Shown one piece after another: positions 34,971 through 52,063 of a stretch of 52,128 bases of DNA. How positions within the stretch are numbered: position 1 is the first letter of the stretch; each line of letters opens with the position of its first letter. This DNA comes from Chloroflexota bacterium. Lineage in GTDB: Bacteria; Chloroflexota; Anaerolineae; Anaerolineales; Anaerolineaceae. The notes beneath the pieces are model-generated. The model was not told where the DNA came from. It worked only from the letters and a program-made list of their open reading frames with translations, and made no database searches. Location of the stretch: positions 1-52,128 of the forward strand of contig JAAZNB010000476.1 in assembly GCA_012798515.1 (NCBI GenBank), written 5' to 3'. Both the position numbers and the translations under genes were made by a program.

Positions 34971-35930
34971 TTACCGGTTGGCAACAGTGGGATGGATGTG
35001 GCTGACCAGGGTACGGGAGGAACCGGCCTGGCGTAGCGCGGCCTGAATCGAATCGACGCGCTCCTGTGGCGCCAGGGCGATGATATTGCCCCCGCCGCCG
35101 GCGCCGGATAACTTGGCGCCCAGGGCCCCGGCCTGACCGGCGACCCGGACCAACTCATCCAGCTGTGGGGTAGAAACCCCGATCTGCTGCAAGAGCTGGT
35201 GGTTGGTGTTCATCAGCTGGCCCAACAGTTCCAGCTGGGCTTTTTGAATGGCGTGGCGGGCTTTTTCGACCAGCGCAGCCATGGCGTCGAAGCGGGCTTC
35301 GTACGTCTCGACGGCCTGCTCGTAACGTTGGCGCACGCCCTGTACCATCTCGGCCGTCGAGCTCTGGATGCCGCTGTCGGCGATGATCAGGGTGAACTGG
35401 CCACCGACGGGCAGGATCTGGTAGGGCTGGCCGCGGGTGAACAGGATCGGTTGAGAGTAGGTAATCACGGTGTTGTCGATGCCGGAAGGCGTACCGTGGT
35501 AATACTTTTCGGCTTCGTAAGAGAGCTCACATACCTGTTGGTCGGCCAGTGGGTGGCCAAGGAAGGCGGATAGGCTGCGCAGCATGGCCACCGACACCGC
35601 CGCACCGGAGCCCAGTCCGGCCGCCAGCGGGATGGTCGAAGTGATGTGCAGGTGCAGGGCGGGCAGGTGGGGAAGCCCCATGGCCTGCTTGAGCAGCTGG
35701 ATAAGGGTGCGGAAAGGATGCTGTTCGGGGAGCTCATCCAGCCGGGTGTTCAGGCCGATGCCCGGAGCGTCGATCCATACTTCGCCGGAGGGCGCCCCCG
35801 GCCTGGCCATGACGACGGCTTTGGCCCTTACCTGGTGGACGGGCACGGCTATGGCGGGACGTTGGTAGACGACCGCATGTTCACCGAACAGGATGGCCTT
35901 CCCGGGGGCAGAAGCACTTATGGCAGGCAT
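34971..35930 (-). CDS. mvk: mevalonate kinase (GHMP family)
   Basis: 319 aa. It has APGKAILFGEHAVVY, the GHMP motif II IPLAAGLGSGAAVSVA, HGTPSGIDN and motif III KLSGAGGGGNIIAL. Confidence 0.88.
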   Translation of the reverse strand: MPAISASAPGKAILFGEHAVVYQRPAIAVPVHQVRAKAVVMARPGAPSGEVWIDAPGIGLNTRLDELPEQHPFRTLIQLLKQAMGLPHLPALHLHITSTIPLAAGLGSGAAVSVAMLRSLSAFLGHPLADQQVCELSYEAEKYYHGTPSGIDNTVITYSQPILFTRGQPYQILPVGGQFTLIIADSGIQSSTAEMVQGVRQRYEQAVETYEARFDAMAALVEKARHAIQKAQLELLGQLMNTNHQLLQQIGVSTPQLDELVRVAGQAGALGAKLSGAGGGGNIIALAPQERVDSIQAALRQAGSSRTLVSHIHPTVANR

Positions 35931-35943
35931 GGTCGTGAAAGGG

Positions 35944-36825
35944 TCAGGTGAGGTAGAAAATGATCAGGACGGCCAGGGCCCACAGCGCGATAGCGATCTG
36001 GAGGGGGCGGTCTTTGAGCAGAAGCTCTTCGGGCTCTCCCCCCACACCTTCCACCTGCATCAGATAGAGATAGCGAAAGATGCCGTACAAGACGAATGGG
36101 ATGGTCAGCATCATGGTGTGGTTATCGGGCAGGTTGGGAGCAGAGAAGGTGTACAAGCTGTAGGCCACGATGGTCGTGCTGGACACCACCATGATGAGCT
36201 GGTCCAGAAGGGGCAGCGTGTATCCATCCAGTACCCGGCGGTGTGAATTAGCGTTTTGGGACAACAGGGTGAGCTCAGCACGCCGTTTGCCAAAGCCGAT
36301 GTACAGAGCCAGCAGGGTGGTCACCACGTACAGCCAGGGCGAGAAGCGTTCCACATGGATCACGCTGACGCCGGCAGCGACGCGCAGGACGAAACCGGCG
36401 GCGATGATCATCACGTCGACCAGGGGGACGTGTTTCAGCCAGTTCGAGTAGGCCACATTCATCAAGAAATAGGCTACCAGGATGGCGGCGAACATGGGCG
36501 AGAGCAGGTAAGCCAGGGGGAAACAAATCGCCAGGATTGCCACCGTGGCGGCTATGGCGGTTGGGATGGGGACGATACCGGCAGCAATGGGGCGGTTACG
36601 CTTCGTGGGGTGTTGGCGGTCCGCTTCGACATCGACGATGTCGTTCAGCAGATAGACCGCGCTGGACACCAGACAAAACAAAATAAAACCAACTAACGAA
36701 TGTAACAGGGCAGTGACGTTGGTTAGTTGGCGGTCGAAGACGAGAGCGGCCAGTACGAAGGCATTTTTGGTCCACTGGCGAGGACGCAGGCTTTTGATCA
36801 ATCCCCGAATCATGGCATTTATCAT
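35944..36825 (-). CDS. UbiA-family prenyltransferase, decaprenyl-phosphate phosphoribosyltransferase (DPPR synthase)-like
   Basis: 293 aa and polytopic. It has the N-terminal LRPRQWTKNAFVLAALVF and the Asp-rich motif LLNDIVDVEADRQHPTKRNRPIAAG. The later GKRRAEL and C-terminal GEPEELLLKDRPLQI closely parallel what I recall of the Rv3806c-type subfamily. Confidence 0.75.
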   Translation of the reverse strand: MINAMIRGLIKSLRPRQWTKNAFVLAALVFDRQLTNVTALLHSLVGFILFCLVSSAVYLLNDIVDVEADRQHPTKRNRPIAAGIVPIPTAIAATVAILAICFPLAYLLSPMFAAILVAYFLMNVAYSNWLKHVPLVDVMIIAAGFVLRVAAGVSVIHVERFSPWLYVVTTLLALYIGFGKRRAELTLLSQNANSHRRVLDGYTLPLLDQLIMVVSSTTIVAYSLYTFSAPNLPDNHTMMLTIPFVLYGIFRYLYLMQVEGVGGEPEELLLKDRPLQIAIALWALAVLIIFYLT

Positions 36826-38509: not shown

Positions 38510-40309
38510 ATGGCGAAGGACGTCCGTAATTTTTGCATTATTGCCCACGTCGACCACGGGAAATCGACCCTGGCGGACCGTATGTTACAGCTGACGGGAA
38601 CCATCTCGGACCGTGAAATGGTAGCCCAGGTCCTGGATAGTATGGAACTGGAGCGCGAAAAGGGGGTCACCATCAAGGCATCGGCCGTACGTATGGCTTA
38701 TGCCGCCCAGGATGGGGTCACGTACGAACTGAACCTGATCGATACGCCTGGCCACGTGGATTTTAACTACGAAGTCAGCCGCGCTCTGGCAGCTTGCGAG
38801 GGCGCTTTATTAATTGTCGATGCAACCCAGGGTATTGAGGCGCAGACGCTGGCAAATCTATACCTGGCGCTCGAATCGGACCTGGTGATCATCCCGGTTA
38901 TTAATAAGATCGACCTGCCTTCTGCCCGCCCGGATGAGGTGGCTGAAGAATTGAGCAATTTACTGGGTTTCATCCCCGATGAGATCTTGAGAATATCTGC
39001 CAAAGATGGTTTGAACGTGGACCAGGTCCTGGAGACCATCGTCAGGCTGGTGCCGCCACCCCAGGGTGACCCGGACCTTCCCGTACGCGCCCTGATCTTC
39101 GATTCCCATTATGATTCGTATAAAGGCGTAATCGCATACATCCGTGTGGTAGAAGGCACGCTCAAAACCACGGATAATATTCGCCTGATGGCTTCCGGCG
39201 CGGTCGTGCGCCCGGTGGAGATTGGCGTTTTTTCACCGGATATGCGTCCGGTGGAGGTGCTGCGGGCGGGGGACGTGGGTTACATTGCTACCGGTTTGAA
39301 GACCGTCTCCGAGAGTCGCGTGGGAGACACGGTGACCCTGGCCGGCAATCCGGCCCAAAAGCCGTTGCCCGGTTACCAGCACGCCAAACCGATGGTGTTT
39401 GCCGGCATCTACCCGGTGGATGGTGAAGATTACCCCGACCTGCGTGATTCACTGGAAAAGCTACAACTAAATGACGCCGCGCTGGTCTTCGAGCCAGAGA
39501 CCTCGCAGGCGCTCAATTTTGGTTTCCGCTGCGGTTTCCTCGGCCTGTTCCATATGGAGATCATCCAGGAACGGCTCGAACGGGAATATGAGCTGGACAT
39601 CGTGGTGACGGCTCCCTCGGTTGAGTACGAGTTGCACATGTTGGACGGTGAGACCCTGCGGATCGATTCACCGGCACAGCTGCCGGATGAATCCACGATC
39701 GGTGAAATCCTCGAGCCCTGGATGAAGTTGCAGATCTTTACCCCAACCGATTATTACGGCACGATCATGGACCTGGTCACCAAACGCAGGGGGGTATATG
39801 TGGAACAGGAATTCCCGGCCCCCAACCGGGTGCAGCTCAGCTTCGAGATCCCGCTGCTGGAATTGATCGTGGATTTCTTCGACGCCTTAAAATCACGCAC
39901 CAAAGGTTATGCTTCGATGGATTACCAATTCCTGGAATATCGTCCGGGAAATTTGGTTAAATTGGAAGTTCTGGTCGGCGGTGAGCCGGTAGACGCCCTG
40001 GCCGCTATCGTGCACAAAGAGAACGCCTACCACAAAGGCCAGGCCTTAGTTACCAAGCTGAAAGAGCTGATCCCCAGGCAGCTGTACGACGTCGCGATCC
40101 AGGCTTCCTCTGGGGGCAGGATTATCTCGCGCGCCAACGTAAAGGCGCTGCGGAAAGATGTGCTGGCCAAATGTTATGGCGGCGACATCACCCGCAAGAA
40201 GAAACTGTTGGAAAAGCAAAAAAAGGGCAAGAGGCGCATGAAAATGGTTGGCAGTGTCGAGATTCCCCAAGAGGCATTCATGGCTGTGTTGCGTTTGGAG
40301 GATGAATAA
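38510..40309 (+). CDS. lepA: translation elongation factor 4 (LepA)
   Basis: 599 aa. It has [32 protein letters not shown], and the LepA-specific C-terminal domain ([25 protein letters not shown]). Confidence 0.97.
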
Positions 40310-40310
40310 G

Positions 40311-41315
40311 ATGAAAGCAGCTCAGCCATCTTCCTTCTGGAAAGGCGCCCGTCGCTGGCTCCCGGGTGTGGTCATCAGCATCGTGGCTTTGTTCCTGGTG
40401 TTCCGCCTGGCCAGCTGGCAGGACCTGTCTACGGCTTTCGAATCACTGCGCCTGTTGAACGTGGTGATTGCCGTAGCACTGACCTTGATTTCACTGGGAA
40501 CCCGTGCCCTGGCCTGGAGAATTACGCTGCGGGGAAAAGCCAGCCTGCGCCAGGCTTTCTTCATCATTAACGAAGGCTATTTACTAAACAATCTATTCCC
40601 GCTGCGCGCCGGTGAGTTTGGACGGGCGGTTTTCATGGGGCAGGCCAGCGGTATGGGGCCCTTCCACGTGCTCTCGACCATTGTCATCGAGCGCATCTTC
40701 GACCTGGCTATGGCAGCTACGCTGCTGTTGATCACTTTACCGTTGGCGTTGGGGATGGCCTGGGCACGCCCGGTCGCCATTGTTACCCTGATCCTGGTAG
40801 TGGTCGGGTTGGTCTTGATGTACCTGGCGGCGCGCTATAACCAGTGGGTCCAAGACTTTGTTAGCCGGCTGGGAGCGCGATGGCCGTTGGTCCAAAAGCA
40901 GGTCATCCCGCGCATCGGTTCGCTGTTGAACGGGCTGAGCGTCATCACCGATCCACTGCGTTTTCTGGCGGCTTTTTCTATGATCGCCATTTCGTGGGTC
41001 ATCTGGGTGGTTATTTACTACGTGATGTTGATCCCCATTGTGCCCCAGGCGCAGTTTTGGTGGGCGGCGTTTGCCGATGGTGTGTTGGCGTTGGGCATCG
41101 CCATTCCCTCGGCGCCGGCGGCGTTGGGCGTCTTCGAGGCGGCGCTGGTGGGGGCGCTCTCCCTGCTGGATGTAAACGTTTCGGCGGCCACAGCCTACGC
41201 CATCTCGATGCACTTCTTGCAGTTCGTCGTGACCGGGCTGCTGGGATTGTGGGGATTGGTGTTGGAAGGCCATTCGTTGTCAGCTGTCTTTTCACAGGCA
41301 AAATCACGAGAGTGA
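40311..41315 (+). CDS. UPF0104 / lysyl-PG-synthase-TM-type flippase-like membrane protein
   Basis: The ORF track starts at 40248 inside lepA. The ATG at 40311 lies 1 nt after the lepA stop. The protein is polytopic. The N-terminal WLPGVVISIVALFLVFRLASW...LRLLNVVIAVALTLISLGTRALAWR and the loop LFPLRAGEFGRAVFM match the family pattern (P.R.GE..R). Confidence 0.7.
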   Translation: MKAAQPSSFWKGARRWLPGVVISIVALFLVFRLASWQDLSTAFESLRLLNVVIAVALTLISLGTRALAWRITLRGKASLRQAFFIINEGYLLNNLFPLRAGEFGRAVFMGQASGMGPFHVLSTIVIERIFDLAMAATLLLITLPLALGMAWARPVAIVTLILVVVGLVLMYLAARYNQWVQDFVSRLGARWPLVQKQVIPRIGSLLNGLSVITDPLRFLAAFSMIAISWVIWVVIYYVMLIPIVPQAQFWWAAFADGVLALGIAIPSAPAALGVFEAALVGALSLLDVNVSAATAYAISMHFLQFVVTGLLGLWGLVLEGHSLSAVFSQAKSRE

Positions 41316-41351
41316 TCTCGGAGAAATACATATGAATGGAGCAGGTTTCGA

Positions 41352-42377
41352 ATGTCGAAACGCTTTCTGGTCACCGGAGGAGCCGGTTTTATCGGCTCGA
41401 ATTATGTTTCACGCCTGTTAAGGCGTGGTGAACAAGTTCACATCTACGACAATCTGTCGCGCCACGGGGCAGCGAAAAACCTGGCCTGGCTCGAAGAACA
41501 ATTTGGCAAAGACGCATTTCAGTTGACCACCGCGGACATCCGCGACGCCAGTGCTATCGCCGCAGCCGCGCATAACGTGGACGTCATCGTCCATCTGGCC
41601 GCCCAGGTGGCCGTCACGACCTCGGTCACCGACCCTCGCCCTGACTTCGAGATTAATGCCCAGGGCACGTTTAACGTGCTCGAGGCTGCCCGTGCAGCCG
41701 GTACACAGCCCATTGTGGTCTATGCTTCGACCAATAAAGTATATGGGGGTATGGAAGACGTACGCGTCGTCGAGGAAGCCGAGCGCTATCGCTACGCGGA
41801 TTACCCTGACGGGATTTCAGAGGCCATGCCCCTGGATTTTCATTCGCCGTATGGCTGCTCAAAAGGCAGCGGCGACCAGTACGTGCGCGATTATCACCGC
41901 ATCTACGACCTGCCTACCGTGGTCATGCGCCAGAGTTGTATCTATGGCCCGCGCCAGTTTGGCGTCGAGGACCAGGGCTGGGTGGCATGGTTTATGATCG
42001 CAGCCATCACCGGCAAACCGATCACCATTTATGGAGATGGCAAACAGGTCCGGGATGTGCTCTTCGTCGAAGACCTGCTGGACGCCTACGATCACGCCAT
42101 CGAACACATCGGTCAGGCTGCCGGCAACGTTTTCAACCTGGGCGGCGGCCCGGCGAACACCATCTCCATCTGGACCGAGTTCGGGCCGATCATCGAGCAG
42201 CTGGCTCATAAGGCCATCCCGGTGGGGCGCGGGGACTGGCGCCCGGGGGACCAGAAGATCTACGTCTCCGACATTGGCAAGGCTGCCCGCATTCTGGAGT
42301 GGAAACCGCGTTACAGCGTACAAGAGGGGATGCAGTGCCTGTTCGATTGGGTCAAGTCGAACCGCCAGTTGTTCTAG
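41352..42377 (+). CDS. NAD-dependent extended-SDR sugar epimerase, CDP-paratose/tyvelose 2-epimerase-like
   Basis: 341 aa. It has the Rossmann motif VTGGAGFIGSNY, STNKVYG, catalytic YGCSKGSGDQY and the subfamily-typical DQGWVAWF. Confidence 0.8.
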   Translation: MSKRFLVTGGAGFIGSNYVSRLLRRGEQVHIYDNLSRHGAAKNLAWLEEQFGKDAFQLTTADIRDASAIAAAAHNVDVIVHLAAQVAVTTSVTDPRPDFEINAQGTFNVLEAARAAGTQPIVVYASTNKVYGGMEDVRVVEEAERYRYADYPDGISEAMPLDFHSPYGCSKGSGDQYVRDYHRIYDLPTVVMRQSCIYGPRQFGVEDQGWVAWFMIAAITGKPITIYGDGKQVRDVLFVEDLLDAYDHAIEHIGQAAGNVFNLGGGPANTISIWTEFGPIIEQLAHKAIPVGRGDWRPGDQKIYVSDIGKAARILEWKPRYSVQEGMQCLFDWVKSNRQLF

Positions 42378-42386
42378 AGGGTCCGT

Positions 42387-43553
42387 ATGCGTATTTTGAT
42401 TGTGTTGACTTATTACCGCCCGCATACGAGCGGCTTGACTATTTATGCTGAACGCCTGGCCAAGGCCTTGGCCAGGCGTGGCCACCAGGTTACGGTTCTG
42501 ACTTCCCAGTACGATCAATCTCTTCCCGGTCAGGAGGTACAGGATGGGGTGCGCATCGTGCGCGTGCCGGTCCTGTTCCGGTTGAGCAAGGGTGTGATCA
42601 TGCCGACTTTTGGCATGATTGCCAACCGGCTGGTGCTCGAACACGACGTCATCCAATTGCACCTGCCCCAGTTTGACGCAGCCGGGGTGGCCATGCGTGG
42701 GCGCCTGTTGGGTAAGCCTACCGTGATTACTTATCACTGCGATCTGTTGATGCCGCCGGGACTGATGGCCTGGGCCGCCAACCGGGCGGTCGATTTGATG
42801 AACAACCTGGCAGCGCGTTACACGCACCGCTTTGTAACTTATACACGCGATTACGCCGAGCATTCACCTTACCTGCGGCGCTATCTGGATAAGCTGCACG
42901 TCATTCCACCGCCGGTAGAACTTCCGGAGGTCACGGCCGCTGAAGTGGCCGGCTTCTGTGAGCAGAACAATCCCCAAAAACGGCGACCGGTGATCGGGAT
43001 GGCGGCCCGCTTTGCCACGGAGAAGGGTGTGGAAGTGCTGCTCGACGCCATGCCGCGTCTGCTGGAGACTTTCCCGGACGCAATGGTTCAGTTTGCCGGC
43101 CCGTACCAGAACATCATCGGTGAAGAAAAGTATTACGAAAGGCTGATCCCCACCATCCGCCAATACGAAGCAGCCGGGAACTGGAAGTTCCTGGGGGTGC
43201 TGGATCCCGTCCAGATGGCCAAGTTTTATCCCAACCTGGACGTCCTGGTACTTTCCAGCCTCAATTCGACCGAAGCTTTTGGGTTGGTACAGATCGAGGC
43301 GATGCTCAACGGGGTTCCCTGCATTGCTTCGAATTTGCCGGGGGTACGGCAGCCGGTCTTGACACACAAGATGGGCAAGATCATCGACATTGGAGACTCT
43401 AAGGGGTTGACCCAGGCATTGATCGACGTTTTATCACATCCGGATGAGTATCACTCTGACCTCGAACCGATCCGAGACCGCTATCGACCAGACTCGATTG
43501 CAGTGGAATACGAGAAGTTGTTCCAGGCTATTCTGGATGAATTAAAAGAATGA
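42387..43553 (+). CDS. GT4-family (GT-B fold) glycosyltransferase
   Basis: 388 aa. It has MRILIVLTYYRPHTSGLTIYAERLAKALARRGHQVTVLT and the C-terminal E-x7-E region SSLNSTEAFGLVQIEAMLNGVPCIASN. Confidence 0.85.
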   Translation: MRILIVLTYYRPHTSGLTIYAERLAKALARRGHQVTVLTSQYDQSLPGQEVQDGVRIVRVPVLFRLSKGVIMPTFGMIANRLVLEHDVIQLHLPQFDAAGVAMRGRLLGKPTVITYHCDLLMPPGLMAWAANRAVDLMNNLAARYTHRFVTYTRDYAEHSPYLRRYLDKLHVIPPPVELPEVTAAEVAGFCEQNNPQKRRPVIGMAARFATEKGVEVLLDAMPRLLETFPDAMVQFAGPYQNIIGEEKYYERLIPTIRQYEAAGNWKFLGVLDPVQMAKFYPNLDVLVLSSLNSTEAFGLVQIEAMLNGVPCIASNLPGVRQPVLTHKMGKIIDIGDSKGLTQALIDVLSHPDEYHSDLEPIRDRYRPDSIAVEYEKLFQAILDELKE

Positions 43554-43592
43554 CCTGTTCTGGATTGGCACCATTCTATAAAGAAAGAGCCG

Positions 43593-44441
43593 GTGTTTAC
43601 CGTTTTGTCTGAAGAGCAAGGCAATCGCTTAGCGCAAAAAGATTTCTTGTGGCTGCATCTGCGCGACTTACCCTATTTTCGCGCTTTACTGCGGGCGGTC
43701 GAGTCTCGCTTTTACCAGTCCATCGAGCTGCCAGGGCCGGTCCTCGACGTGGGATGCGGGGATGGTTGTTTTGCTTCGATCACCTTCGAGCGCCCGTTGG
43801 ACGTCGGCATCGATCCCTGGGCCGATCCGATCCGGGAGGCTGTGCGTAGCAGCGGGTACGGCGCCGTTATCCAGGGCTATGGCAGTGACATGCCTTTCCC
43901 GGATGCCAGTTTTGGCAGTTGTATCAGCAACTCGGTACTGGAGCACATTCCCGAGCTGGACGCCGTACTGGCCGAGATTGGACGGGTTTTAACCCCGGGG
44001 GCTGTTTTTGTTTTCTGCGTCCCCAACCAACAATTCCTTAACAATCTTTCCGTCTCCACTTTTTTCGACCGGATGGGCTTAAAATGGTTGGGAGACAGAT
44101 ACCGTGCTTTCTTCAACCGGATCTCGCGGCACTATCACTGTGATTCGCCCGAAGTCTGGCAAGAGCGCCTGGAACGCGCCGGTTTTCGCCTGGAGCGTTG
44201 GTGGCATTACTTTTCCCCGGGCGCATTGCACGCGCTCGAATGGGGACATTACCTGGGGGTGCCGTCCTGGATCATGAAAAGGCTCAGCGGGCATTGGGTC
44301 CTTTTCCCCACCCGGTGGAACCTGGGCCTGACTCAAAGACTACTCCAACCGTATTATGACGAAGATCCTGAATGTGCGGATGGCTCTTACACGTTTTACA
44401 TTGCTTATCGCCAATCAGAGCCGGCCCCGCCGGTGAAATAG
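43593..44441 (+). CDS. class I SAM-dependent methyltransferase
   Basis: 282 aa from GTG 43593 (no earlier in-frame ATG). It has SAM motif I VLDVGCGDGCF, an acidic post-I residue (VGIDP) and the motif SNSVLEHIP...LTPGAVFVF. Confidence 0.75.
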   Translation: MFTVLSEEQGNRLAQKDFLWLHLRDLPYFRALLRAVESRFYQSIELPGPVLDVGCGDGCFASITFERPLDVGIDPWADPIREAVRSSGYGAVIQGYGSDMPFPDASFGSCISNSVLEHIPELDAVLAEIGRVLTPGAVFVFCVPNQQFLNNLSVSTFFDRMGLKWLGDRYRAFFNRISRHYHCDSPEVWQERLERAGFRLERWWHYFSPGALHALEWGHYLGVPSWIMKRLSGHWVLFPTRWNLGLTQRLLQPYYDEDPECADGSYTFYIAYRQSEPAPPVK

Positions 44442-44535
44442 AGCCCATCAGTGGGACCAGGAACAGGGTGGGCCTCTTTCACCGCAGGCTCGTGGTTACG
44501 TTTTGGATATAATATCAACAAAAAAGAGTGATGGT

Positions 44536-46686
44536 ATGGATGAACCCAGCGTCCTTGACTATATCAAAGCCAAGCTGCACCTGACTCACGAACAAATTGA
44601 AATCCCGTTGCAAGTGTCGCCTTCCGGCGACGGCAGCTCGAACGGTTCTTCCGAATTAATCGCTACCCAGACACCGGAAGACCAGGCAGCGCCTGGCACG
44701 GGTAAATGGTTTATCGCCCTGCCGGTGCGTCTGGTGCTGGCCATGTGTGCGGCCATTCTGGCCCAGGTGCTGCTGGAGCCGCCCCAACCGAGACTGCCCG
44801 TGGCCGTTGGTCTGTACGTTTTCTCGGCTGTGATGTGTGTGTGGGCGCTGTTGGACCAAAGTTGGACCCTGCCCGAGCTGGAAGAGAAACCGTTTACTTC
44901 CATGCCCATGGACATCCGCCGCAATCCCTTCCTGCTTTCGATCCCGCTGATTCTCGTTGCTTTTATCCTATTTACCGGCAATCGTTTTACTCCCCTGAAC
45001 ATGTTGGTATGGGGCCTGACCATTTTTCTGGTGCTGCGTTCTTTGTGGCTGCCGGGTGACCGGCCGTGGATCAAAGGGGCCCTGGACAAGGTGCGGGCCT
45101 TCGTACGCCACCCTGAAGTGCGCATCCATCTCTCCGGGTTCCAACTGCTGTTCATTTTGGTGGCCCTGGTGGCTATTTATTTCCGCTTTTCACAACTACC
45201 GCAGATCCCTGGAGAAATGTTCAGCGATCATGCCGAAAAGTTATTGGACGTCTCTGACGTTTTAAACGGGCAGACCTCGATTTTCTTCCCCCGCAACACC
45301 GGGCGGGAAGCCATCCAGATGTACCTGACGGCGACGATTGCAACGCTGCTCGGCACGGGGCTGTCTTTCATGAGCTTGAAGATCGGCACCGCCCTGGCCG
45401 GATTGTTCACATTGCCCTACATTTACCTGTTGGGCAAAGAGATCGGTAACCGCTGGGTGGGGCTGCTGGCATTCTTCATGGCGGGCATCGCGTACTGGCC
45501 GAACGTCATCTCGCGCATCGGTCTGCGTTTCCCCCTTTACCCGTTGTTCGCCGCTCCGTTCCTGTACTATTTAATCCGCGGCCTGAGAAATTCCAATCGC
45601 AATGATTTTATCCTGGCCGGCCTGGCGTTGGGGATTGGCCTGCACGGCTACAGCCCCATGCGCATCGTACCGTTTGTGGCTGTGGCGGCAGTCGCCATCT
45701 ACCTGTTGCACAAATCCTCTCGCGGCGGGCGTTGGCAGACCATCTTTGCCCTGGGCGCCCTGGCCTTTGTCTCCCTGGTGGTCTTTCTGCCTCTATTGCG
45801 CTACATGACCGAAGATCCGGACATGTTTGGCTACCGGGCATTCTCGCGTCTGGGCACTACGGAACGAGCCTTCCCGGGACCGGTGTGGTTGATCTTTCTG
45901 AGCAACCTGTGGAACGGGGTGACCATGTTCTTCTGGAAAGATGGCAACATCTGGGTGCACTCGATCACGAACCGGCCGGCGCTGGATGTAGTCACAGCGG
46001 CTTTCTTCTTCGTGGGTATCATTCTGTTGAGCGTACGTTACATCCGTAAACGTGACTGGCTGGATCTGTTCTTGATCCTATCCATCCCCTTGTTAATGAT
46101 GCCCTCGATCCTTTCGCTGGCCTTCCCGGACGAAAACCCCTCCCTCAACCGTACGGGTGGGGCGATCATCCCGGTTTTCATCATTGCGGCCATCGGAGTC
46201 GAAAGCGTGTTTGCGAATATCAATCGCAGCACCCGGACCCGCACCGGGAAAATGTTGGTGGGGGCCCTAGGGGTTACTCTGTTGGCGTGGACCACTTTTC
46301 AAAACTACGATCTGGTATTCCGCCAGTTCAAAACCCAGTTCTATGGCGGGGCGTGGAACACGACCCAGATTGGGCACGTGATCCGCTCGTTTGCTGATTC
46401 TGAAGGCGCCCTGGCGGACGCATTTGTGGTACCCTATCCCTATTGGGTGGATACGCGCGTGGTAGGAATCAATGCCGGAGATCCCTTGCGGGATTATGCG
46501 CTGTGGCCGGAAGATTTCGAGACCACGTTACCCGACAAAAATGCCAAGCTGTTTATCGTGAAGCCTGACAACACTGAAGCTCTGGCGAAACTCGAAGAGC
46601 TTTATCCCCAGGGATGGGTAAAATATTATAATTCGCCGCTGGAAGGTAAAGATTTCCTCGGCTTTTATGTGCCTCCCCAGTCTTGA
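44536..46686 (+). CDS. polytopic GT-C-like (PMT/ArnT-like) membrane protein
   Basis: The ORF track starts at TTG 44503; the first ATG is at 44536. It has about 12 or more hydrophobic helices. The first long loop after helix ...VALVAIYFRFSQL carries FSDHAEKLLDVSDVL (45226-45240), which parallels the acidic-loop region of both halves of the downstream giant protein. It has a soluble C-terminal domain (VVPYPYWVDTRVVG...LFIVKP...FYVPP). The GT-C assignment is an inference from architecture, not a recognised exact family match. Confidence 0.55.
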   Translation: MDEPSVLDYIKAKLHLTHEQIEIPLQVSPSGDGSSNGSSELIATQTPEDQAAPGTGKWFIALPVRLVLAMCAAILAQVLLEPPQPRLPVAVGLYVFSAVMCVWALLDQSWTLPELEEKPFTSMPMDIRRNPFLLSIPLILVAFILFTGNRFTPLNMLVWGLTIFLVLRSLWLPGDRPWIKGALDKVRAFVRHPEVRIHLSGFQLLFILVALVAIYFRFSQLPQIPGEMFSDHAEKLLDVSDVLNGQTSIFFPRNTGREAIQMYLTATIATLLGTGLSFMSLKIGTALAGLFTLPYIYLLGKEIGNRWVGLLAFFMAGIAYWPNVISRIGLRFPLYPLFAAPFLYYLIRGLRNSNRNDFILAGLALGIGLHGYSPMRIVPFVAVAAVAIYLLHKSSRGGRWQTIFALGALAFVSLVVFLPLLRYMTEDPDMFGYRAFSRLGTTERAFPGPVWLIFLSNLWNGVTMFFWKDGNIWVHSITNRPALDVVTAAFFFVGIILLSVRYIRKRDWLDLFLILSIPLLMMPSILSLAFPDENPSLNRTGGAIIPVFIIAAIGVESVFANINRSTRTRTGKMLVGALGVTLLAWTTFQNYDLVFRQFKTQFYGGAWNTTQIGHVIRSFADSEGALADAFVVPYPYWVDTRVVGINAGDPLRDYALWPEDFETTLPDKNAKLFIVKPDNTEALAKLEELYPQGWVKYYNSPLEGKDFLGFYVPPQS

Positions 46687-46744: not shown

Positions 46745-49700
46745 ATGGCCGATTTACAACTTTCAGAACCACAGGCTGAGCCGGATCAGAAAAGCCAGAC
46801 CAGAACCCCGTGGATTTACGTCATCCTGCTGGTTGGGATTCTGTTGGCGGGAGCTTATTTCCGCTTCATCGGGATAAATTGGGACGACCACCAACATCTT
46901 CATCCCGACGAGCGCTTCTTGACCATGGTGGAGACGGCAATATCTCCGGTAAGCAATGTGTCGGATTACTTCAACACTGCCGTTTCATCCCTCAATCCCA
47001 ACAATCGCGGCTACTCGTTCTTCGTGTACGGCACCTTACCGATTTTCATCGTACGCTATGCGGCAGAATTGTGGCAGAATACGGGGTACGACCAGGTCTA
47101 TCTGGTGGGCAGGTTCCTGTCAGGGACCATCGACTTGATGACTGTGGTGCTGGTGTTCTTGACCGCCCGGCAGCTCTACCGGAAAAACTGGTTGGCGCTG
47201 TTGGCAGCGGCCTTTTACGCCTGTGCAGTGTTGCCCATCCAACTATCGCACTACTTCGCCGTAGACAGCTTTACCGGTTTCTTTACCCTCCTGGCCCTGT
47301 ATTTCGCCATCTTGATCCTGACCGGCCCGGTGCATGTTCCCCGGCCTGTGCCTGTAGAAGCGGGGGAGGAAGACGACGAAGCCCCTGCCGCGCCGCGCCG
47401 GGCATGGATAGACGCCGGGCTGAAATATTATCTGCTGTTTGGAGCAGCCCTGGGCATGGCCATGGCGTCGAAAGTCAGCGCAGCTCCATTGGCGTTGGCC
47501 CTGCCGTTGGCGGCCCTGGTCTACCTGAGCCGGCTGGAGCGGCAACAGCGCCGCGCCTGGCTACTCCCCTTGCTGCGCAACCTGGTACTGGGCGCCGTGG
47601 CGGCCTTCCTGGTCTTCCGTATCTTCCAACCGTATGCCTTCAGCGGGCCGGGCTTCTTTGGCCTGCAATTGAACCAGAACTGGTTGGATAACCTGCGTGA
47701 GCTCAGCCAGCAAAGCGGTGGCGACGTGGATTTCCCGCCTGCTTTGCAGTGGGCGCGCCGCCCGTTCAGCTTTGCTTTTGTCAATATCCTGTATTGGGGA
47801 TTGGGACTGCCCCTGGGAATCCTGGCCTGGGCTGGTTTCCTCGCCATGGGATGGCGCATGCTCAAGGGCGAGTGGCGCCGGCACATCCTGTTGTGGAGCT
47901 GGACGGCGGTCTATTTTATTTGGCAATCGATCAATTTCTCGCGCAATATGCGTTACCAAAACCTGATCTACCCCGCGCTGGCCATCATGGCTGCCTGGTT
48001 AGTATTTGTGCTCTGGGAGCGAAGGGGAAACCTGCGTTGGGATATTTGGCGCCGGAGGCTGGCCTTGGCTATCGGGGCGGTCGTGCTGCTGGGCTCGGTG
48101 GCGTGGGCGTATGCCTTTACGCGAATCTACACTCGCCCGGTGACCCGGGTAGCGGCCAGCACGTGGATTTACCAGAATATTCCGGTGGCGATCAACCTGC
48201 CCATCGAATCCGGAGACGGCTCCATCCCACAGCTGATCGCTTTCCAGCCTAATTACACACTGGCTTCCGGCAACCCCTGGACGGTCAGCTTCGTGCCGAA
48301 AGTAAGCGGTCCGGTGAGTAGTTTCGAGATTGCCCACATTCTGAACACCGGGGTGACGGCGGAGGGCGGGCCAGCGACGTTGACCTTGCTGGTCACCCTT
48401 CAAGAGGAGCAGGACGGGCCCCCTCTGACTTCCGGTACCCTGGTAGGAGATTTCCAGTCCAACGGTGTCGAACGCGGCCAGGCGTACGAAATCCCGTTCA
48501 CCCAGCCCATCCCCGTCCAGGCCGGGAGGCAATATTTCCTGACCCTGCAGGTAATCGAGCCGGACAGCGCACTGAGCCTGGCCGGTAGCGCCAGCGTGAG
48601 TATGCTGACCCCGGAAGGGAAGACCAATTCTTTCCTGGTCGACCCGGCAGACGCCATCTACCAGGATAAAGATTACATCGTCCTGTTTACTGCACTGCAA
48701 AGCGGGACGATCCGGCAAGCATTGCTGCCCCACATTGTGGATTGGGAAGCGGCGCCTCAAGAAAAAACACTGACGCTTTCCCTGGGGCTGCCGGACACGG
48801 ACGAGCCGGCTACGGCGACGGCGCAGGCCACCAGCCAGTTCCAGGCCGGCGAGGACCCGCGCGGCCAGGCCTATACGCTCCAATTAGACCGGCCTTTCCA
48901 GGTGGAAAAGGGCCAGACCTACCAGCTCCGGCTGCATGTGGACGGACCGGGTAAGATCGCGGCCTACGGCAGCCGCCAGGCTATCGAGAGTTCCTGGGAC
49001 GATTCCTTGCCCCTGGGCATGCCGGGTTATAACCCGTACGATTTCAACCAGGGCGTTTACCGCAGTGAATTGAATTTCGAGATGTACTGGGACGATAATG
49101 CCGATAAGCTGGACCGTTTCCTGGACATCCTCGACCAGGCCGATTACATCTTTATCACCTCCAACCGCCAGTGGGCAACGACGACCCGGGTACCGGAACG
49201 TTATCCACTGACGACAGCCTATTACCGGGAGCTGTTAGGCTGCCCGCCAGAGCAAGACCTGTTGTGGTGTTACCAGGTAGCACAGCCGGGTATGTTCACC
49301 GGAGACCTGGGATTCGAATTGACCCAGGTATTCCAATCCGAACCGACCCTGGGGAATATTCAAATCAACACCCAATCGGCGGAAGAGTCCTTCACCGTTT
49401 ACGACCATCCCAAGGTGTTGATCTTCAAGAAGACGGACGCCTATGATTGGAGCCACGTTCGCCAGTTGTTGTCCAGCGTCGACCTCAGCCAGGTAATCCA
49501 CGTTACCCCTGCCAAAGTAGGCAGTTATCCGGCTAATTTGATGCTGCCCGAAGACCGCCTGGCCGGGCAACGCAGCGGGGGCACCTGGTCGGAACTGTTC
49601 CCTCCGGGGGCCATTTTCAACCAGTACCCGGGCGTAGGGGCAGTGTTATGGTATCTGGCGGTGTTCCTGCTGGGCGTAATCGTGTATCCCAGCGTGCGTC

Positions 49701-52063
49701 TGGCTTTGCGTGGGCTGCCTGACCATGGTTACCCGCTCGCCCGCCTGTTGGGCATGCTGCTCCTGTCTTACCTGGTGTGGTTGGCCGGATCGGCGAAGAT
49801 TCCCTTCGATAAAGCGACCATCAGTGCGGCAGTGCTCCTGCTGGTGCTGGTGAACCTGGTATTGGCCTATCTGCAAAGAGAAGGCCTGCGCGCTGAATGG
49901 AAACAGCGTAAAAAGTACTTCCTGGTGGTCGAAGCCCTGGCGCTGGCCAGCTTCGTGCTGTTCCTCCTCGTCCGCCTGGGGAATCCTGATCTGTGGCATC
50001 CCTACAAAGGCGGAGAAAAGCCGATGGACTTTTCTTATTTCAACGCCGTACTGCGCAGTACAACCTTCCCGCCTTACGACCCCTGGTTTGCCGGCGGGTA
50101 CATCAATTACTATTACTATGGCTTTGTGTTGAGCGGGGTGCTGGTCAAGTGGATCGGGATCACACCTTCCGTAGCCTATAACCTCATTCTGCCCACGTTT
50201 TTCTGCTTCGTGGCCCTGGGTGCGTTTTCTTTCGGCTGGAACCTGTTTGCCCGCGAACCCGCTGAAGACGCAGCGGAAGCTCCGGCGACGTTCTGGCAGC
50301 AATACTGGAGCCCGTTGTTGGCTGGCCTGGCGTCTTCGCTGGGGCTGCTGGTGCTGGGGAACCTGGGCACGGTGCGCATGATCTGGCAAGGGTTGCAACG
50401 GTTGGCTGCGGTTGGCCCGATCGAAGGTGCGAATATCTTCCAGCATTGGATGTGGACGTTCCAGGGACTGGTACGTTTTATCCAGGGCGCCACGTTGCCT
50501 TACGGGCCCGGGGATTGGTACTGGATCCCCAGCCGGGCAATCCCGAACGAGCCAATCACTGAATTTCCTTTGTTTACCTTTCTGTACGCCGACCCGCATG
50601 CCCACCTGTTTGCCCTGCCATTGACCATCCTGGCCCTGGGTTGGGCGCTGTCTTTCCTCAAGAACCGCTGGCAGTGGGGTGACGGTGTGCACATTCCCGC
50701 CTGGCTGCACTTCCTGGCCAGCTTCGCGGCAGGCGGACTGGTGATCGGCAGTTTGCGGCCCACGAACACCTGGGACCTGCCCACCTATCTGGCCATTGGT
50801 TGTGTGGTGGTGATCTATACGGCGATCAGTTACAGCCAGGAGCGGACTTTCCTGCCCCACGGGCTGCCGGCCTGGGCCCGGCGTATCCTGACCGCATTAT
50901 TGGGCGTGGCTTTGTTGTTCGGATTATCCTGGGCGTTTTTCTTACCCTACAGCCACTGGTATGGGCAGGGATACACTACATTCGGTGTCTGGGAGGGCGA
51001 CCATACGCCTTTCTGGTCCTACGTGACCCATTGGGGCCTGTTCCTCTTCATCCTCATCACCTGGATGTTGTGGGAGACGCGCGAGTGGATGGCCAGCACA
51101 CCGGTGTCGCATTTGAACCGTCTACGCCCCTTCCGGGTGGTGATCGAAGCCCTGCTGGTCGCTCTGGTGGCGGCAGTGGTCGTGCTGCTCTTCACCGGCG
51201 TGCAGATCGCCTGGCTGGCGCTGCCGGTGGCCGTGTGGGCGGCGGTCCTGATCCTGCGACCGGGGCAGAGCGCCGAGAAACGTCTGGTGTTATTCATGGT
51301 CGGATCGGCCCTGGTGTTGAGCCTGGGCGTTGAGCTGGTGGTCCTGGAAGGCGACGTCGGCCGGATGAACACGGTGTTCAAGTTCTATTTACAGGCCTGG
51401 ACCTTGTTCGCTTTGTCCTCCGGAGCCGCCCTGATGTGGCTGGCGCCGGCGGTTGCTCGCCAGTGGCTGTCGCAATGGCGCTCGACCTGGCAGGTGGCCC
51501 TGGCCGTGCTGGTCGGTTGTGCGGCCTTGTTCCCGCTGATGGGGGGGGCGGACAAGATCCGAGATCGCATGAGCAGCCTCGCACCGCACACGCTGGATGG
51601 GATGACCTACATGGCCTATTCGACTTATGCGTACAATGGCGTCGAGATGGACCTGCGCCAGGATTATGAAGCCATCCGCTGGATGCAAGAGAACGTGCAA
51701 GGTTCCCCGGTGATTGTGGAAGCCAACACGACCGAATACTTGTGGGGGTCGCGTTTTACCATCTATACCGGGCTGCCAGGGGTGCTGGGATGGAACTGGC
51801 ACCAGCGCCAGCAGAGGGCTATCGCGCCCACCGAATGGGAATGGGATCGTGTCAATGCCATCGACCTGTTCTACAAGAGCATTGACGAAACCGTCACCAG
51901 GCAGTTCCTGCAGCAATACGACGTAGAATACATCGTCGTCGGCCAGTTGGAACGCGCCATGTATACGGGCTTTGGGATCGAGAAATTCGACGCCTGGAAT
52001 GGCGAGCTGTGGGATGAAGTGTATCGCCAGGGCGATACGGTAATCTACCGGGTACGTTCGTGA
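46745..52063 (+). CDS. giant polytopic membrane protein: GT-C-like N-terminal module + tandem soluble repeats + Chlor_Arch_YYY/DUF2298 module
   Basis: The 1772-aa uninterrupted ORF has three parts. Residues ~1-470 are hydrophobic, with AYFRFIGINWDDHQHLHPDERFLTMV (HPDERF at 46901-46918). Residues ~480-930 are soluble and contain two ~130-aa repeats. Residues ~940-1600 are hydrophobic, with HPYKGGEKPMDFSYFNAVLRS and GGYINYYYYGFVL (YYYYG at 50108-50122), the eponymous motif of the Chlor_Arch_YYY family as I recall it. The C-terminal soluble domain has GLPGVLGWNWHQRQQR. Confidence 0.75.
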   Translation: MADLQLSEPQAEPDQKSQTRTPWIYVILLVGILLAGAYFRFIGINWDDHQHLHPDERFLTMVETAISPVSNVSDYFNTAVSSLNPNNRGYSFFVYGTLPIFIVRYAAELWQNTGYDQVYLVGRFLSGTIDLMTVVLVFLTARQLYRKNWLALLAAAFYACAVLPIQLSHYFAVDSFTGFFTLLALYFAILILTGPVHVPRPVPVEAGEEDDEAPAAPRRAWIDAGLKYYLLFGAALGMAMASKVSAAPLALALPLAALVYLSRLERQQRRAWLLPLLRNLVLGAVAAFLVFRIFQPYAFSGPGFFGLQLNQNWLDNLRELSQQSGGDVDFPPALQWARRPFSFAFVNILYWGLGLPLGILAWAGFLAMGWRMLKGEWRRHILLWSWTAVYFIWQSINFSRNMRYQNLIYPALAIMAAWLVFVLWERRGNLRWDIWRRRLALAIGAVVLLGSVAWAYAFTRIYTRPVTRVAASTWIYQNIPVAINLPIESGDGSIPQLIAFQPNYTLASGNPWTVSFVPKVSGPVSSFEIAHILNTGVTAEGGPATLTLLVTLQEEQDGPPLTSGTLVGDFQSNGVERGQAYEIPFTQPIPVQAGRQYFLTLQVIEPDSALSLAGSASVSMLTPEGKTNSFLVDPADAIYQDKDYIVLFTALQSGTIRQALLPHIVDWEAAPQEKTLTLSLGLPDTDEPATATAQATSQFQAGEDPRGQAYTLQLDRPFQVEKGQTYQLRLHVDGPGKIAAYGSRQAIESSWDDSLPLGMPGYNPYDFNQGVYRSELNFEMYWDDNADKLDRFLDILDQADYIFITSNRQWATTTRVPERYPLTTAYYRELLGCPPEQDLLWCYQVAQPGMFTGDLGFELTQVFQSEPTLGNIQINTQSAEESFTVYDHPKVLIFKKTDAYDWSHVRQLLSSVDLSQVIHVTPAKVGSYPANLMLPEDRLAGQRSGGTWSELFPPGAIFNQYPGVGAVLWYLAVFLLGVIVYPSVRLALRGLPDHGYPLARLLGMLLLSYLVWLAGSAKIPFDKATISAAVLLLVLVNLVLAYLQREGLRAEWKQRKKYFLVVEALALASFVLFLLVRLGNPDLWHPYKGGEKPMDFSYFNAVLRSTTFPPYDPWFAGGYINYYYYGFVLSGVLVKWIGITPSVAYNLILPTFFCFVALGAFSFGWNLFAREPAEDAAEAPATFWQQYWSPLLAGLASSLGLLVLGNLGTVRMIWQGLQRLAAVGPIEGANIFQHWMWTFQGLVRFIQGATLPYGPGDWYWIPSRAIPNEPITEFPLFTFLYADPHAHLFALPLTILALGWALSFLKNRWQWGDGVHIPAWLHFLASFAAGGLVIGSLRPTNTWDLPTYLAIGCVVVIYTAISYSQERTFLPHGLPAWARRILTALLGVALLFGLSWAFFLPYSHWYGQGYTTFGVWEGDHTPFWSYVTHWGLFLFILITWMLWETREWMASTPVSHLNRLRPFRVVIEALLVALVAAVVVLLFTGVQIAWLALPVAVWAAVLILRPGQSAEKRLVLFMVGSALVLSLGVELVVLEGDVGRMNTVFKFYLQAWTLFALSSGAALMWLAPAVARQWLSQWRSTWQVALAVLVGCAALFPLMGGADKIRDRMSSLAPHTLDGMTYMAYSTYAYNGVEMDLRQDYEAIRWMQENVQGSPVIVEANTTEYLWGSRFTIYTGLPGVLGWNWHQRQQRAIAPTEWEWDRVNAIDLFYKSIDETVTRQFLQQYDVEYIVVGQLERAMYTGFGIEKFDAWNGELWDEVYRQGDTVIYRVRS
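48377..48940 (+). repeat. tandem ~130-aa protein-level repeat inside the giant ORF
   Basis: Residues 545-603 (TLTLLVTLQEEQDGPPLTSGTLVGDFQSNGVERGQAYEIPFTQPIPVQAGRQYFLTLQV) align with residues 675-732 (TLTLSLGLPDTDEPATATAQATSQFQAGEDPRGQAYTLQLDRPFQVEKGQTYQLRLHV). They share TLTL, GQAY, P..V..G..Y.L.L.V. The period is 129-130 residues. Confidence 0.65.

Follow-up and report, generated by a model that had tools for sequence, protein, structure and literature searches.

Chloroflexota, Archaea and some Firmicutes encode a large family of membrane proteins known as DUF2298/YYY, and the TIGR03662 and DUF2298 family descriptions mention a single-copy form and a double-copy form with additional TPRs. 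In the literature that we searched, the family is mentioned only incidentally and neither a function nor biochemistry is described. The systems that most closely resemble the protein analyzed here are glycosyltransferases of the GT-C type, whose GT-CA hallmarks are a first transmembrane helix (TM1), a first juxtamembrane helix with an acidic tip (JM1) and a second juxtamembrane helix (JM2). Mycobacterial AftA (GT85, PDB 8IF8) places two accessory N-terminal helices before its GT-C core, carries the canonical Asp at the JM1 tip in the first two-helix outer loop, ends in an alpha5beta5 C-terminal domain, and receives its donor from a pathway with a UbiA-type phosphoribosyltransferase. The PMT_2/ArnT/Pmt enzymes (PF13231/PF02366; GT83/GT39) have an Asp-Glu pair right after TM1. 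Emb/AftD and the GT136 enzyme ORF12 combine a single catalytic GT-C core with extracytoplasmic beta-rich domains to which the acceptor glycan binds, and CBMs appended to GT-C enzymes are a described precedent. PIG-U is a precedent for non-catalytic subunits with a GT-C fold. A three-component pentofuranose modification system consists of a polyprenyl-phosphate phosphoribosyl synthase (PPPRS), a MATE or SMR flippase and a GT136-type GT-C enzyme (Kelly et al. 2024), and there is precedent for the combined logic of PPPRS, flippase, GT-C, SDR epimerase and CBM.

Here, we analyze a giant membrane protein of 1772 amino acids encoded on a 52,128-nucleotide stretch of DNA from a Chloroflexota bacterium of the class Anaerolineae (the window). 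It represents a third architecture beside the single-copy and the double-copy-plus-TPR forms of the YYY family, namely a PMT_2-like GT-C module joined to one DUF2298 module; neither this combination nor any other polypeptide with two GT-C cores was described in the literature searched. With a probability of roughly 65%, we regard the giant as a two-headed extracytoplasmic GT-C glycosyltransferase that arose by fusion of two GT-C lineages, and it probably helps to build a cell-envelope glycan. With only 6 differences (99.7% identity), the giant matches a MAG protein at NCBI that is annotated as 'DUF2298 domain-containing protein [Anaerolineaceae bacterium]'.

Hydropathy and AlphaFold (AF2) secondary structure agree with the three-part layout of the original prediction, two hydrophobic modules separated by a soluble insert, with a soluble domain at the C-terminus (Table 1); the insert measures about 480 amino acids. 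Every motif it quoted is present: HLHPDERF (aa 51-58), YFNTAVSS (aa 75-82) and FFVYGTLP (aa 92-99) in the first hydrophobic module, and HPYKGGEKPMDFSYFNAVLRS (aa 1085-1105) and YINYYYYGFVL (aa 1119-1129) in the second. The two halves were modeled by AF2 with a pLDDT of 86.3 and a pTM of 0.85 (N half) and a pLDDT of 85.8 and a pTM of 0.90 (C half). When the alternation of the helices is traced by hand, the short loops assigned to the inside are rich in Lys and Arg, and the acidic loops of both modules would face the cell exterior, as would the insert and the C-terminal domain.

Table 1 Giant ORF, its predicted domains and neighboring genes in the window
Feature	Position	Strand	Description
Giant ORF	46745..52063	+	1772 aa, ATG to stop without break; PMT_2-like GT-C, tandem beta-sandwich insert, alpha/beta, DUF2298 (AftA-like GT-C), C-terminal alpha/beta
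N-terminal membrane module	46745..48178	+	aa 1-478, ~11 TM helices (within aa 23-478); divergent PMT_2-like GT-C(A) core
First extracytoplasmic loop of N module	46868..47086	+	aa 42-114; predicted catalytic site 1
Beta-sandwich repeat 1	48191..48637	+	aa 483-631; putative carbohydrate-binding-like; all-beta by AF2, repeat by HHalign/BLASTP
Beta-sandwich repeat 2	48674..48985	+	aa 644-747; AF2 and HHalign/BLASTP repeat
Alpha/beta soluble domain closing N half	49100..49597	+	aa 786-951; AF2 and conservation
DUF2298/Chlor_Arch_YYY membrane module	49628..51568	+	aa 962-1608, ~16 TM helices: 3 extra, then GT-C core
First long extracytoplasmic loop of DUF2298 core	49982..50164	+	aa 1080-1140; predicted catalytic site 2
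C-terminal alpha/beta domain	51599..52060	+	aa ~1619-1772; within TIGR03662 match and AftA structural alignment
Upstream neighbor, PMT_2-type GT-C	44503..46686	+	727 aa; Pfam PMT_2 36 bits (cutoff 26.1); in 61/82 loci
Flippase-like (MprF-type TM domain), SDR epimerase/dehydratase, GT4, SAM methyltransferase	40248..44441	+	Co-directional, upstream
UbiA-family polyprenyl(decaprenyl)-phosphate phosphoribosyltransferase (PPPRS) homologue	35944..36825	-	NF008977 277 bits (cutoff 234), NF008978 260 bits (cutoff 207)
Mevalonate kinase and isopentenyl-phosphate kinase	34166-35930	-	Minus-strand unit with PPPRS homologue

The N-terminal module had been called GT-C-like from the sequence, and structural comparison with Foldseek confirms this: all 34 PDB matches of the N half at E<1e-3 are GT-C enzymes. 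AglB (1e-7), ArnT (7.5e-7) and Pmt4 (9e-7, TM 0.55) are among the matches of this half, as are EmbA/B/C with long alignments, Pmt1/2, STT3, ALG9/12, PglB, AftA (9e-3) and, at rank 48, PIG-U. In the AF2 models both modules of the giant display the GT-CA hallmarks. In the N module, JM1 (aa 54-65) and JM2 (aa 97-109) lie between TM1 (aa 23-41) and TM2 (aa 115-145). The motif H53-P-D55-E56-R-F sits at the tip of JM1 and is invariant in 52/52 sequences, and Y95-G96 lies immediately N-terminal of JM2. Pfam PMT_2 (PF13231) matches the module with 16.4 bits (E=0.011), which is under the gathering threshold of 26.1, and precomputed PMT or PMT_2 matches exist for about one quarter of the giant's orthologues. 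HHalign relates the module to the neighboring PMT_2 family with a probability of 96.3% (E=1.7e-9), rising to 98.1% (E=1.2e-13) with broadened profiles. By these profile comparisons the N module is a divergent relative of PMT_2 rather than a formal member. It shares with PMT_2/ArnT/Pmt enzymes the Asp-Glu pair right after TM1, but differs from them in the HLHPDERF loop motif and in the beta-sandwiches, the alpha/beta domain and the entire second GT-C enzyme that come after it.

The assignment of the second module to DUF2298/YYY is established by matches far above the cutoffs, to PF10060 at aa 1006-1555 (E=1.7e-114, 383.9 bits versus 27.8) and to TIGR03662 Chlor_Arch_YYY at aa 966-1771 (E=1.4e-152, 510 bits versus 300.25). 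In the AF2 model, helix 1091-1104 has E1091-K-P-M-D1095 at its tip, and helix 1124-1137 starts at Y1122-Y-Y-Y-G1126. An alignment of 140 sequences, composed of the C modules of the giants and single-copy DUF2298 paralogues, retains E1091 in 138, Y1122-1124 in 137-138 and G1126 in 138. The expected conservation of the acidic residues is thus seen in both modules. Position 1095, one turn after E1091, is Asp in the giants and Glu in 12/12 downstream paralogues displayed. Further conserved polar residues line the outer loops of the DUF2298 module (S1263-R1264, E1273, D1283xH1285xH1287, N1341/D1344, R1540/N1542/K1546).

The only significant PDB match of the C half in Foldseek is AftA (8if8_C, E=1.9e-4, probability 1.0, TM 0.51), in an alignment of 727 columns that spans both the transmembrane and the C-terminal domain. 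AftA and the DUF2298 half have in common the accessory N-terminal helices, a GT-C core, an acidic residue in the first two-helix outer loop and an alpha/beta C-terminal domain. The likeness is, however, one of fold only, with 11% identity in the structural alignment and no detectable sequence similarity. The DUF2298 half has three accessory helices instead of two, a Glu instead of an Asp at the JM1 tip, the YYYxG motif and a fusion to another GT-C, and its host, unlike mycobacteria, has no known arabinogalactan. Searches of the PDB by phmmer and with the family profile returned no GT-C match (8IF8 was absent at E<=10), and a relaxed Pfam scan of 19 single-copy DUF2298 proteins and 12 'unk584' proteins returned no secondary GT-C family match. 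A GT-C fold of the DUF2298 half is therefore predicted through a single Foldseek match of a modeled structure, a narrower basis than that of the N module.

Duplication within the soluble insert, also foreseen in the original prediction, is evident from BLASTP of aa 481-640 against aa 641-772 (E=1e-8, 30% identity) and from HHalign of family alignments, which pairs aa 509-640 with aa 641-764 (probability 99.7%, E=7.5e-26). No curated CBM family matched the two beta-sandwich domains in a Pfam scan, which gave only a weak PHR match (E=0.02). By analogy with the CBMs of Emb, AftD and GT136 enzymes, the beta-sandwich pair is likely glycan-binding. The resemblance to these enzymes lies in the combination of a GT-C core with extracytoplasmic beta-rich domains, for which binding of the acceptor glycan is putative in the giant; Emb, AftD and GT136 enzymes, in contrast, have one catalytic core. 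The alpha/beta domain region that follows contains the invariant residues W751-D-D, Y781, R808, E818-R819, C833, C842 and Y886-D887. We presume that aa 786-951 and aa 1619-1772 serve as periplasmic cap domains of the first and second GT-C module, respectively. Comparison of aa 760-960 with aa 1603-1772, and of each with the neighboring proteins, yielded no detectable similarity.

Separate PMT_2 and DUF2298 genes adjoin in this and other Chloroflexi loci, including another Chloroflexi genome in the literature, which would fit an annotation or assembly artefact that joined two such genes. This reading is effectively refuted and deserves next to no credence. The fusion is unbroken in 81 of 82 loci (L001, L002 and 80 loci from a genome scan, some of them in isolate genomes or on complete chromosomes), the exception, L060, being cut by a contig end. 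It recurs in more than 120 full-length proteins of 50-60% identity, and AF2 modeled the junction region with good confidence. Relatives of the giant occur in at least 576 species genomes, with the best 80 all from Anaerolineae and with Anaerolinea thermolimosa and Bellilinea caldifistulae as cultured carriers, and form 1218 clusters at 50% identity (E<=1e-30). Among the 50%-identity representatives no unfused N half is evident; the one shorter match that was checked (P0122) ends at a contig end. How the fusion arose was explained differently by the original prediction, as a double-copy YYY protein in which one GT-C-like core was duplicated internally in the distant past; the YYY motif would since have disappeared from the first copy, and a repeat insert would stand in place of the TPRs. 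Such an origin would account for the GT-C fold of both halves, the match of both to AftA, the acidic JM1 tip and the aromatic-Gly motif opening JM2 that the halves share, and the short look-alike motifs. However, no alignment method supports the proposed motif-by-motif match of the hydrophobic modules. BLASTP of aa 1-470 against aa 940-1600 detected no similarity. HHalign of the two modules, which the prediction itself had named as a refuting test, gave probabilities of 1% (120 homologues), 1% (locus-derived profiles) and 0.4% (broadened profiles). It was run at three profile depths, in local, global and greedy modes and also with the first-loop regions alone, and values stayed at 0.2-1% even with 300-plus sequences. 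The motifs differ in secondary-structure context and in spacing, with 19 residues from the acid to YFN in the N module versus 7 in the C module and 20 versus 27 from YFN to YG, and single-copy DUF2298 paralogues have a deletion where the second module carries its 'HP'. TIGR03662 and PF10060 match once each, which leaves no place for a degenerate first YYY copy. The PMT_2 family itself is unrelated to DUF2298 at profile level (0.7%). HHalign places the C module with the single-copy DUF2298 proteins encoded downstream in relatives at 100% (E=2e-109; 28-31% identity by BLASTP). As the N module thus resembles the PMT_2 neighbor (98%), the C module the single-copy DUF2298 proteins (100%), and the modules each other with at most 1% at every depth and mode, we reject internal duplication as highly improbable. 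The giant is a fusion of two distinct, already diverged GT-C lineages, and any common origin of its two modules is no closer than among GT-C enzymes generally.

Only one head might be catalytic, with the N module acting as a Pmt- or ArnT-like enzyme and the DUF2298 half serving as scaffold, in acceptor binding or in handling of the lipid carrier, or the reverse. The non-enzyme PIG-U among the Foldseek matches of the N half, the Glu at the JM1 tip of DUF2298 and the missing description of any enzymatic activity for DUF2298 in the literature searched are compatible with this division of labor. Yet the loops that hold the two putative active sites are invariant or conserved to 98% or more, the outer loops of the DUF2298 module hold further conserved polar residues, and stand-alone DUF2298 genes in the same operon imply an autonomous function. 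We therefore consider a single catalytic head unlikely, though well worth keeping in mind, and favor the two-headed enzyme.

The conserved operon comprises genes for a flippase-like protein, a GT4, the giant and a PMT_2-like protein of 584 amino acids, with an SDR epimerase, a methyltransferase, a PMT_2 GT-C and a single DUF2298 protein as optional members. Among the 82 loci, the flippase-like gene is present in 69, GT4 in 74, SDR in 46 and the methyltransferase in 56. The operon can encode up to three GT-C proteins in addition to the giant, and up to five GT-C modules overall. About 10 kb upstream of the giant and on the opposite strand lies the gene of the PPPRS homologue, separated from the operon by the housekeeping genes FtsJ, DUF72 and LepA. 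Its position is syntenic across Anaerolineae, and it was detected in 44/82 loci within 10-kb flanks, which just reach it in layouts like that of the window and include it fully where the upstream region is more compact. Since the genomes compared are all from a single class, common descent and not a functional tie may explain this synteny. The PPPRS homologue, a relative of the enzyme in the donor pathway of AftA, is a candidate for the enzyme that makes a lipid-linked pentofuranose donor, and its link to the giant is putative. Searches of the window found no DprE1/E2 genes, no phosphoribose phosphatase gene and no gene for a GT2 polyprenyl-phosphate-sugar synthase. In comparison with the three-component system of Kelly et al. 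(2024), the flippase-like protein is of the MprF/TIGR00374 type, the GT-C proteins are PMT_2-like and DUF2298, and the PPPRS homologue is encoded outside the operon of the giant instead of together with the GT-C.

Folds, domain order, the repeat, residue conservation, family relationships and synteny are results of the analysis. In the mechanism that we infer from them, including topology, activity of both heads, donor, acceptor and product, head 1 (aa 1-478) would be a GT-CA core of the PMT_2/ArnT/Pmt type with D55-E56 as predicted catalytic residues. Outside the membrane it would be followed by the two beta-sandwich domains and then the alpha/beta cap. The chain would then pass back into the membrane to form head 2 (aa 962-1772). 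This part, an entire DUF2298/YYY unit whose GT-C fold resembles that of AftA, is predicted to consist of three accessory helices, the GT-C core with E1091/D1095 at the JM1 tip and YYYxG opening JM2, and an alpha/beta cap. Since head 1 is predicted to end outside and stand-alone DUF2298 proteins to start outside, the fusion would need no extra linker helix. As in characterized GT-C enzymes, each head would take a sugar from a donor linked to polyprenyl phosphate and add it to a growing acceptor on the outer side of the membrane. The heads may each catalyze a different step on one shared polymer while the beta-sandwich pair keeps hold of the acceptor.

The operon and the nearby PPPRS gene suggest an assembly line for an envelope glycan or lipoglycan of Anaerolineae. 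Its logic may be comparable to that of mycobacterial LM/LAM/arabinogalactan synthesis, possibly with a lipid-linked pentofuranose. The most specific version of this proposal, in which two active heads carry out distinct transfers one after the other on one polymer held by the beta-sandwiches, using lipid-linked Ribf or Araf supplied by the PPPRS homologue, is speculative and, in our view, rather doubtful as a whole. If true, Anaerolineae would make an envelope polymer resembling arabinan or ribofuranan through a pathway that has until now been known chiefly in Mycobacteriales, and a new family of GT-C glycosyltransferases would begin with DUF2298.

To our knowledge, Anaerolineae are an abundant but poorly cultured class whose envelope is barely characterized. 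The AftA-like fold, the fusion to a second GT-C and the operon context provide a testable hypothesis for DUF2298, with D55/E56 and E1091/D1095 as named candidate residues. The giant further points to a conserved and complex extracytoplasmic glycan pathway in Anaerolineae.

The 1772-codon ORF that runs from an ATG at 46745 to a stop ending at 52063 on the plus strand, 65 nt short of the window end, encodes a giant protein that joins two GT-C lineages (membrane glycosyltransferases dependent on lipid-linked sugars) which were distinct before their fusion, one divergent and PMT_2/ArnT/Pmt-like, the other DUF2298. The ORF coordinates and every peptide motif quoted in the original prediction were recovered in the translation, and the predicted order of membrane module, soluble insert and second membrane module with a soluble C-terminus was borne out by hydropathy and by AlphaFold secondary structure (two models), which agreed. 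The second half is unambiguously DUF2298/YYY, as anticipated (PF10060, aa 1006-1555, E=1.7e-114; TIGR03662, aa 966-1771, E=1.4e-152). Judged by profile scores, it is a bona fide DUF2298/TIGR03662 member, and the N half (16.4 bits against a PMT_2 cutoff of 26.1) is a divergent PMT_2 relative and not a formal member. The proposed duplication within the soluble insert is a true repeat, detected by self-BLASTP in the single sequence (E=1e-8, 30% identity) and by HHalign of family alignments (aa 509-640 versus 641-764, 99.7% probability, E=7.5e-26).

Each half was modelled separately, and with confidence, from a 52-sequence alignment (aa 1-960, pLDDT 86.3, pTM 0.85; aa 941-1772, pLDDT 85.8, pTM 0.90). 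A structure search of the PDB with the N half returned 34 matches at E<1e-3, GT-C glycosyltransferases without exception, in keeping with the GT-C-like character first assigned to this module. AglB (1e-7), ArnT (7.5e-7) and Pmt4 (9e-7, TM 0.55) were among them, EmbA/B/C, Pmt1/2, STT3, ALG9/12 and PglB were also matched, and AftA appeared at a weaker E of 9e-3. For the DUF2298 half, the sole significant match was AftA (8if8_C; E=1.9e-4, probability 1.0, TM 0.51), aligned over 727 columns that cover both the membrane and the C-terminal domain. AftA is the mycobacterial priming arabinofuranosyltransferase; its published structure has two accessory N-terminal helices ahead of the GT-C core, a catalytic Asp128 in a first long outer loop built from two helices, and a periplasmic alpha5beta5 domain after the core. 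The DUF2298 model shares this plan, with three accessory helices instead of two. The assignment of DUF2298 to a GT-C fold, AftA-like in fold only, rests on one Foldseek match to a predicted model, and neither half belongs to GT85 by sequence.

In the models, both modules also fit the GT-CA definition, i.e., a TM1-7 module whose TM1 and TM2 are separated by two juxtamembrane helices (JM1, JM2), JM1 bearing an essential acid at its tip. In the N module, TM1 (23-41) is followed by JM1 (54-65), which starts at D55-E56, and by JM2 (97-109), just preceded by Y95-G96. In the C module, JM1 (1091-1104) follows the core TM (1045-1079) and starts at E1091, with D1095 one turn on; JM2 (1124-1137) comes next and is opened by the YYYxG motif. 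The acidic residues are conserved as predicted: H53-P-D55-E56-R-F is invariant in 52 of 52 orthologues, and E1091-K-P-M, Y1122-1124 and G1126 are kept in 135-138 of 140 sequences. These sequences include the paralogous single-copy DUF2298 group, which has only ~30% identity to the C module. Giant proteins have D at position 1095; all 12 single-copy paralogues displayed have E there.

The alternative, a double-copy YYY protein whose first copy has decayed, was suggested by look-alike motifs thought to align one by one between the two modules. Their spacing differs, and their structural context partly so; YFN forms its own short helix in the N module and lies within JM1 in the C module, and the C-module 'HP' is deleted in DUF2298 paralogues. 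The expected self-similarity of the hydrophobic halves did not materialize either. BLASTP gave no match between the modules, and HHalign probabilities were 1% with 120 orthologues, 0.2% for the first-loop regions alone, 1% with locus-derived profiles including paralogues, and at most 0.4% when >300 sequences were used, whether the mode was local, greedy or global. The same profiles detected true relatives of each module: the N module matched the family of the upstream PMT_2-positive neighbour (from 96.3%, E=1.7e-9 to 98.1%, E=1.2e-13; ~340-365 columns), and the C module matched the stand-alone DUF2298 gene found downstream in related genomes (100%, E=2e-109). PMT_2 and DUF2298 profiles reached 0.7% against each other. 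This lack of similarity, together with the separate families matched by the two modules, leads us to reject the decayed double copy in favour of fusion; common ancestry of the modules, if any, is no closer than among all GT-C enzymes.

Topology was assigned by hand, alternating sides along the AF2 helices (11 in the N module, 16 in the C half) from an N-terminus taken as cytoplasmic. Eleven helices would place the insert outside, and we infer the same for both long conserved C-half loops and the C-terminal domain, as had been expected of the acidic loops and insert. Short loops placed inside are Lys/Arg-rich (e.g., aa 139-149, 263-272, 425-438, 982-1000, 1044-1057). Residue 7 of the stand-alone DUF2298 paralogue aligns to residue 969 onward of the giant protein; free DUF2298 would therefore also begin outside the membrane, and fusion would have needed no adaptor helix.

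Features of the giant protein (aa) and of the window and conserved gene order (nt)
Feature	Position	Strand	Basis or occurrence
N membrane helices	aa 23-478		hydropathy, AlphaFold
Two beta domains	aa 483-631, 644-747		hydropathy, AlphaFold
Alpha/beta domain	aa 786-951		hydropathy, AlphaFold
Second membrane-helix block	aa 962-1608		hydropathy, AlphaFold
C-terminal alpha/beta domain	aa ~1619-1772		hydropathy, AlphaFold
Two N_BRCA1_IG Ig-like paralogues, two M23 peptidase-domain proteins, PD40 beta-propeller protein	14799-20628	-	
Isopentenyl-phosphate kinase, mevalonate kinase, UbiA-type enzyme	34166-36825	-	syntenic in related loci
FtsJ, then LepA		+	first in plus-strand order
Flippase-like MprF-type protein	40248-41315	+	69/82 loci, after LepA
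SDR epimerase		+	46/82, after flippase-like protein
GT4		+	74/82, after SDR epimerase
Methyltransferase		+	56/82, after GT4
PMT_2 GT-C	44503-46686	+	61/82, after methyltransferase, just before giant gene
Single-copy DUF2298		+	~58 loci, after giant gene
584-aa protein		+	66/82, after single-copy DUF2298
Cytidylate kinase		+	67/82, after 584-aa protein

Gene order around the giant gene is kept across the 82 related loci compared. The ~584-aa protein lies past the window end, 3' of the giant or single DUF2298 gene (L001:18173-19927 and L002:17841-19589 in two of these loci). Its 12 scanned members had no Pfam match; it matches the PMT_2 neighbour family (HHalign 95.3%, E=2.3e-8), carries an L-S-D-x-E-A motif after TM1 and looks like an unannotated GT-C family, so that one operon can encode as many as five GT-C modules. 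Operon content is modular: among the 80 loci from the genome scan, the methyltransferase and PMT_2 genes are both missing from ~17, where GT4 sits directly 5' of the giant gene, and ~10 lack single-copy DUF2298; flippase-like protein, GT4, giant protein and 584-aa protein form the constant core. The flippase-like ORF (LPG_synthase_TM/TIGR00374) has a listed TTG start that overlaps the lepA end by ~60 nt; its orthologues have 334-337 aa versus 355 aa here, and the true start is therefore probably further downstream. In L002 (contig_5526, host of P0113), FtsJ-like (1135-1934) and GT4 (4890-6045) are each split into at least two called ORFs, which could reflect frameshifts or sequencing errors of that assembly. 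The UbiA-type enzyme scores above NCBIfam cutoffs for decaprenyl-phosphate phosphoribosyltransferase, and its minus-strand unit suggests a lipid-linked phosphoribose pathway in this Anaerolineae genome.

The remaining window genes represent an ordinary housekeeping chromosome. Among them are a minus-strand series of proteins that are probably secreted or part of the cell wall and a topoisomerase I (28561-30885, +) with an N-terminal DUF5679 beside Toprim, Topoisom_bac and zinc ribbons. Three ORFs of 250-356 aa (31088-32158, +; 3776-4726, +; 13-765, -) had no Pfam match at E<=1e-5, the first also no NCBIfam match at E<=1e-3.

An NCBI MAG entry, 'DUF2298 domain-containing protein [Anaerolineaceae bacterium]', has 99.7% identity to the giant protein, and the matches listed include >120 full-length orthologues of 1750-1900 aa with 50-60% identity. 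N-half relatives occur in at least 576 genomes (one genome per species scanned), the best 80 of which are exclusively Anaerolineae, with the cultured Anaerolinea thermolimosa IMO-1 and Bellilinea caldifistulae GOMI-1 among them; exhaustive phmmer yielded 1218 clusters at 50% identity (E<=1e-30). We found no evidence of an unfused N half, the one shorter match examined being cut by a contig end. The N-half relatives P0230, P0255 and P0260 have 2315-2445 aa, with the match beginning at residue 752 in one, and still larger architectures therefore exist.

We propose that the giant protein would be a GT-C glycosyltransferase with two heads working outside the cytoplasm, both taking a polyprenyl-phosphate-linked sugar as donor. 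The glycan acceptor would be held by the homologous pair of beta-sandwich domains that separates the heads, a role played by CBMs in Emb, AftD and ORF12, a GT136 enzyme. The operon would combine a GT4 on the cytoplasmic side with a flippase-like protein and multiple GT-Cs that face outward, a logic similar to mycobacterial lipoglycan/arabinogalactan assembly; the Citrobacter system has a parallel to the SDR epimerase in its ORF13. A lipid-linked pentofuranose donor is an attractive, unproven possibility because a polyprenyl-phosphate phosphoribosyltransferase homologue is nearby and conserved and the DUF2298 fold is AftA-like; the homologue's gene lies on the opposite strand with housekeeping genes between, and neither a phosphatase nor DprE1/E2 turned up in the window. 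The searchable literature mentions DUF2298 incidentally only, lists it beside PMT_2 genes in another Chloroflexi genome, and yielded no description of a polypeptide with two GT-C cores. The sequence family in databases and the GT-C class with its logic are already known; new here are the fold predicted for DUF2298, the fusion of two cores in one chain and the conservation of an operon with several GT-C genes.
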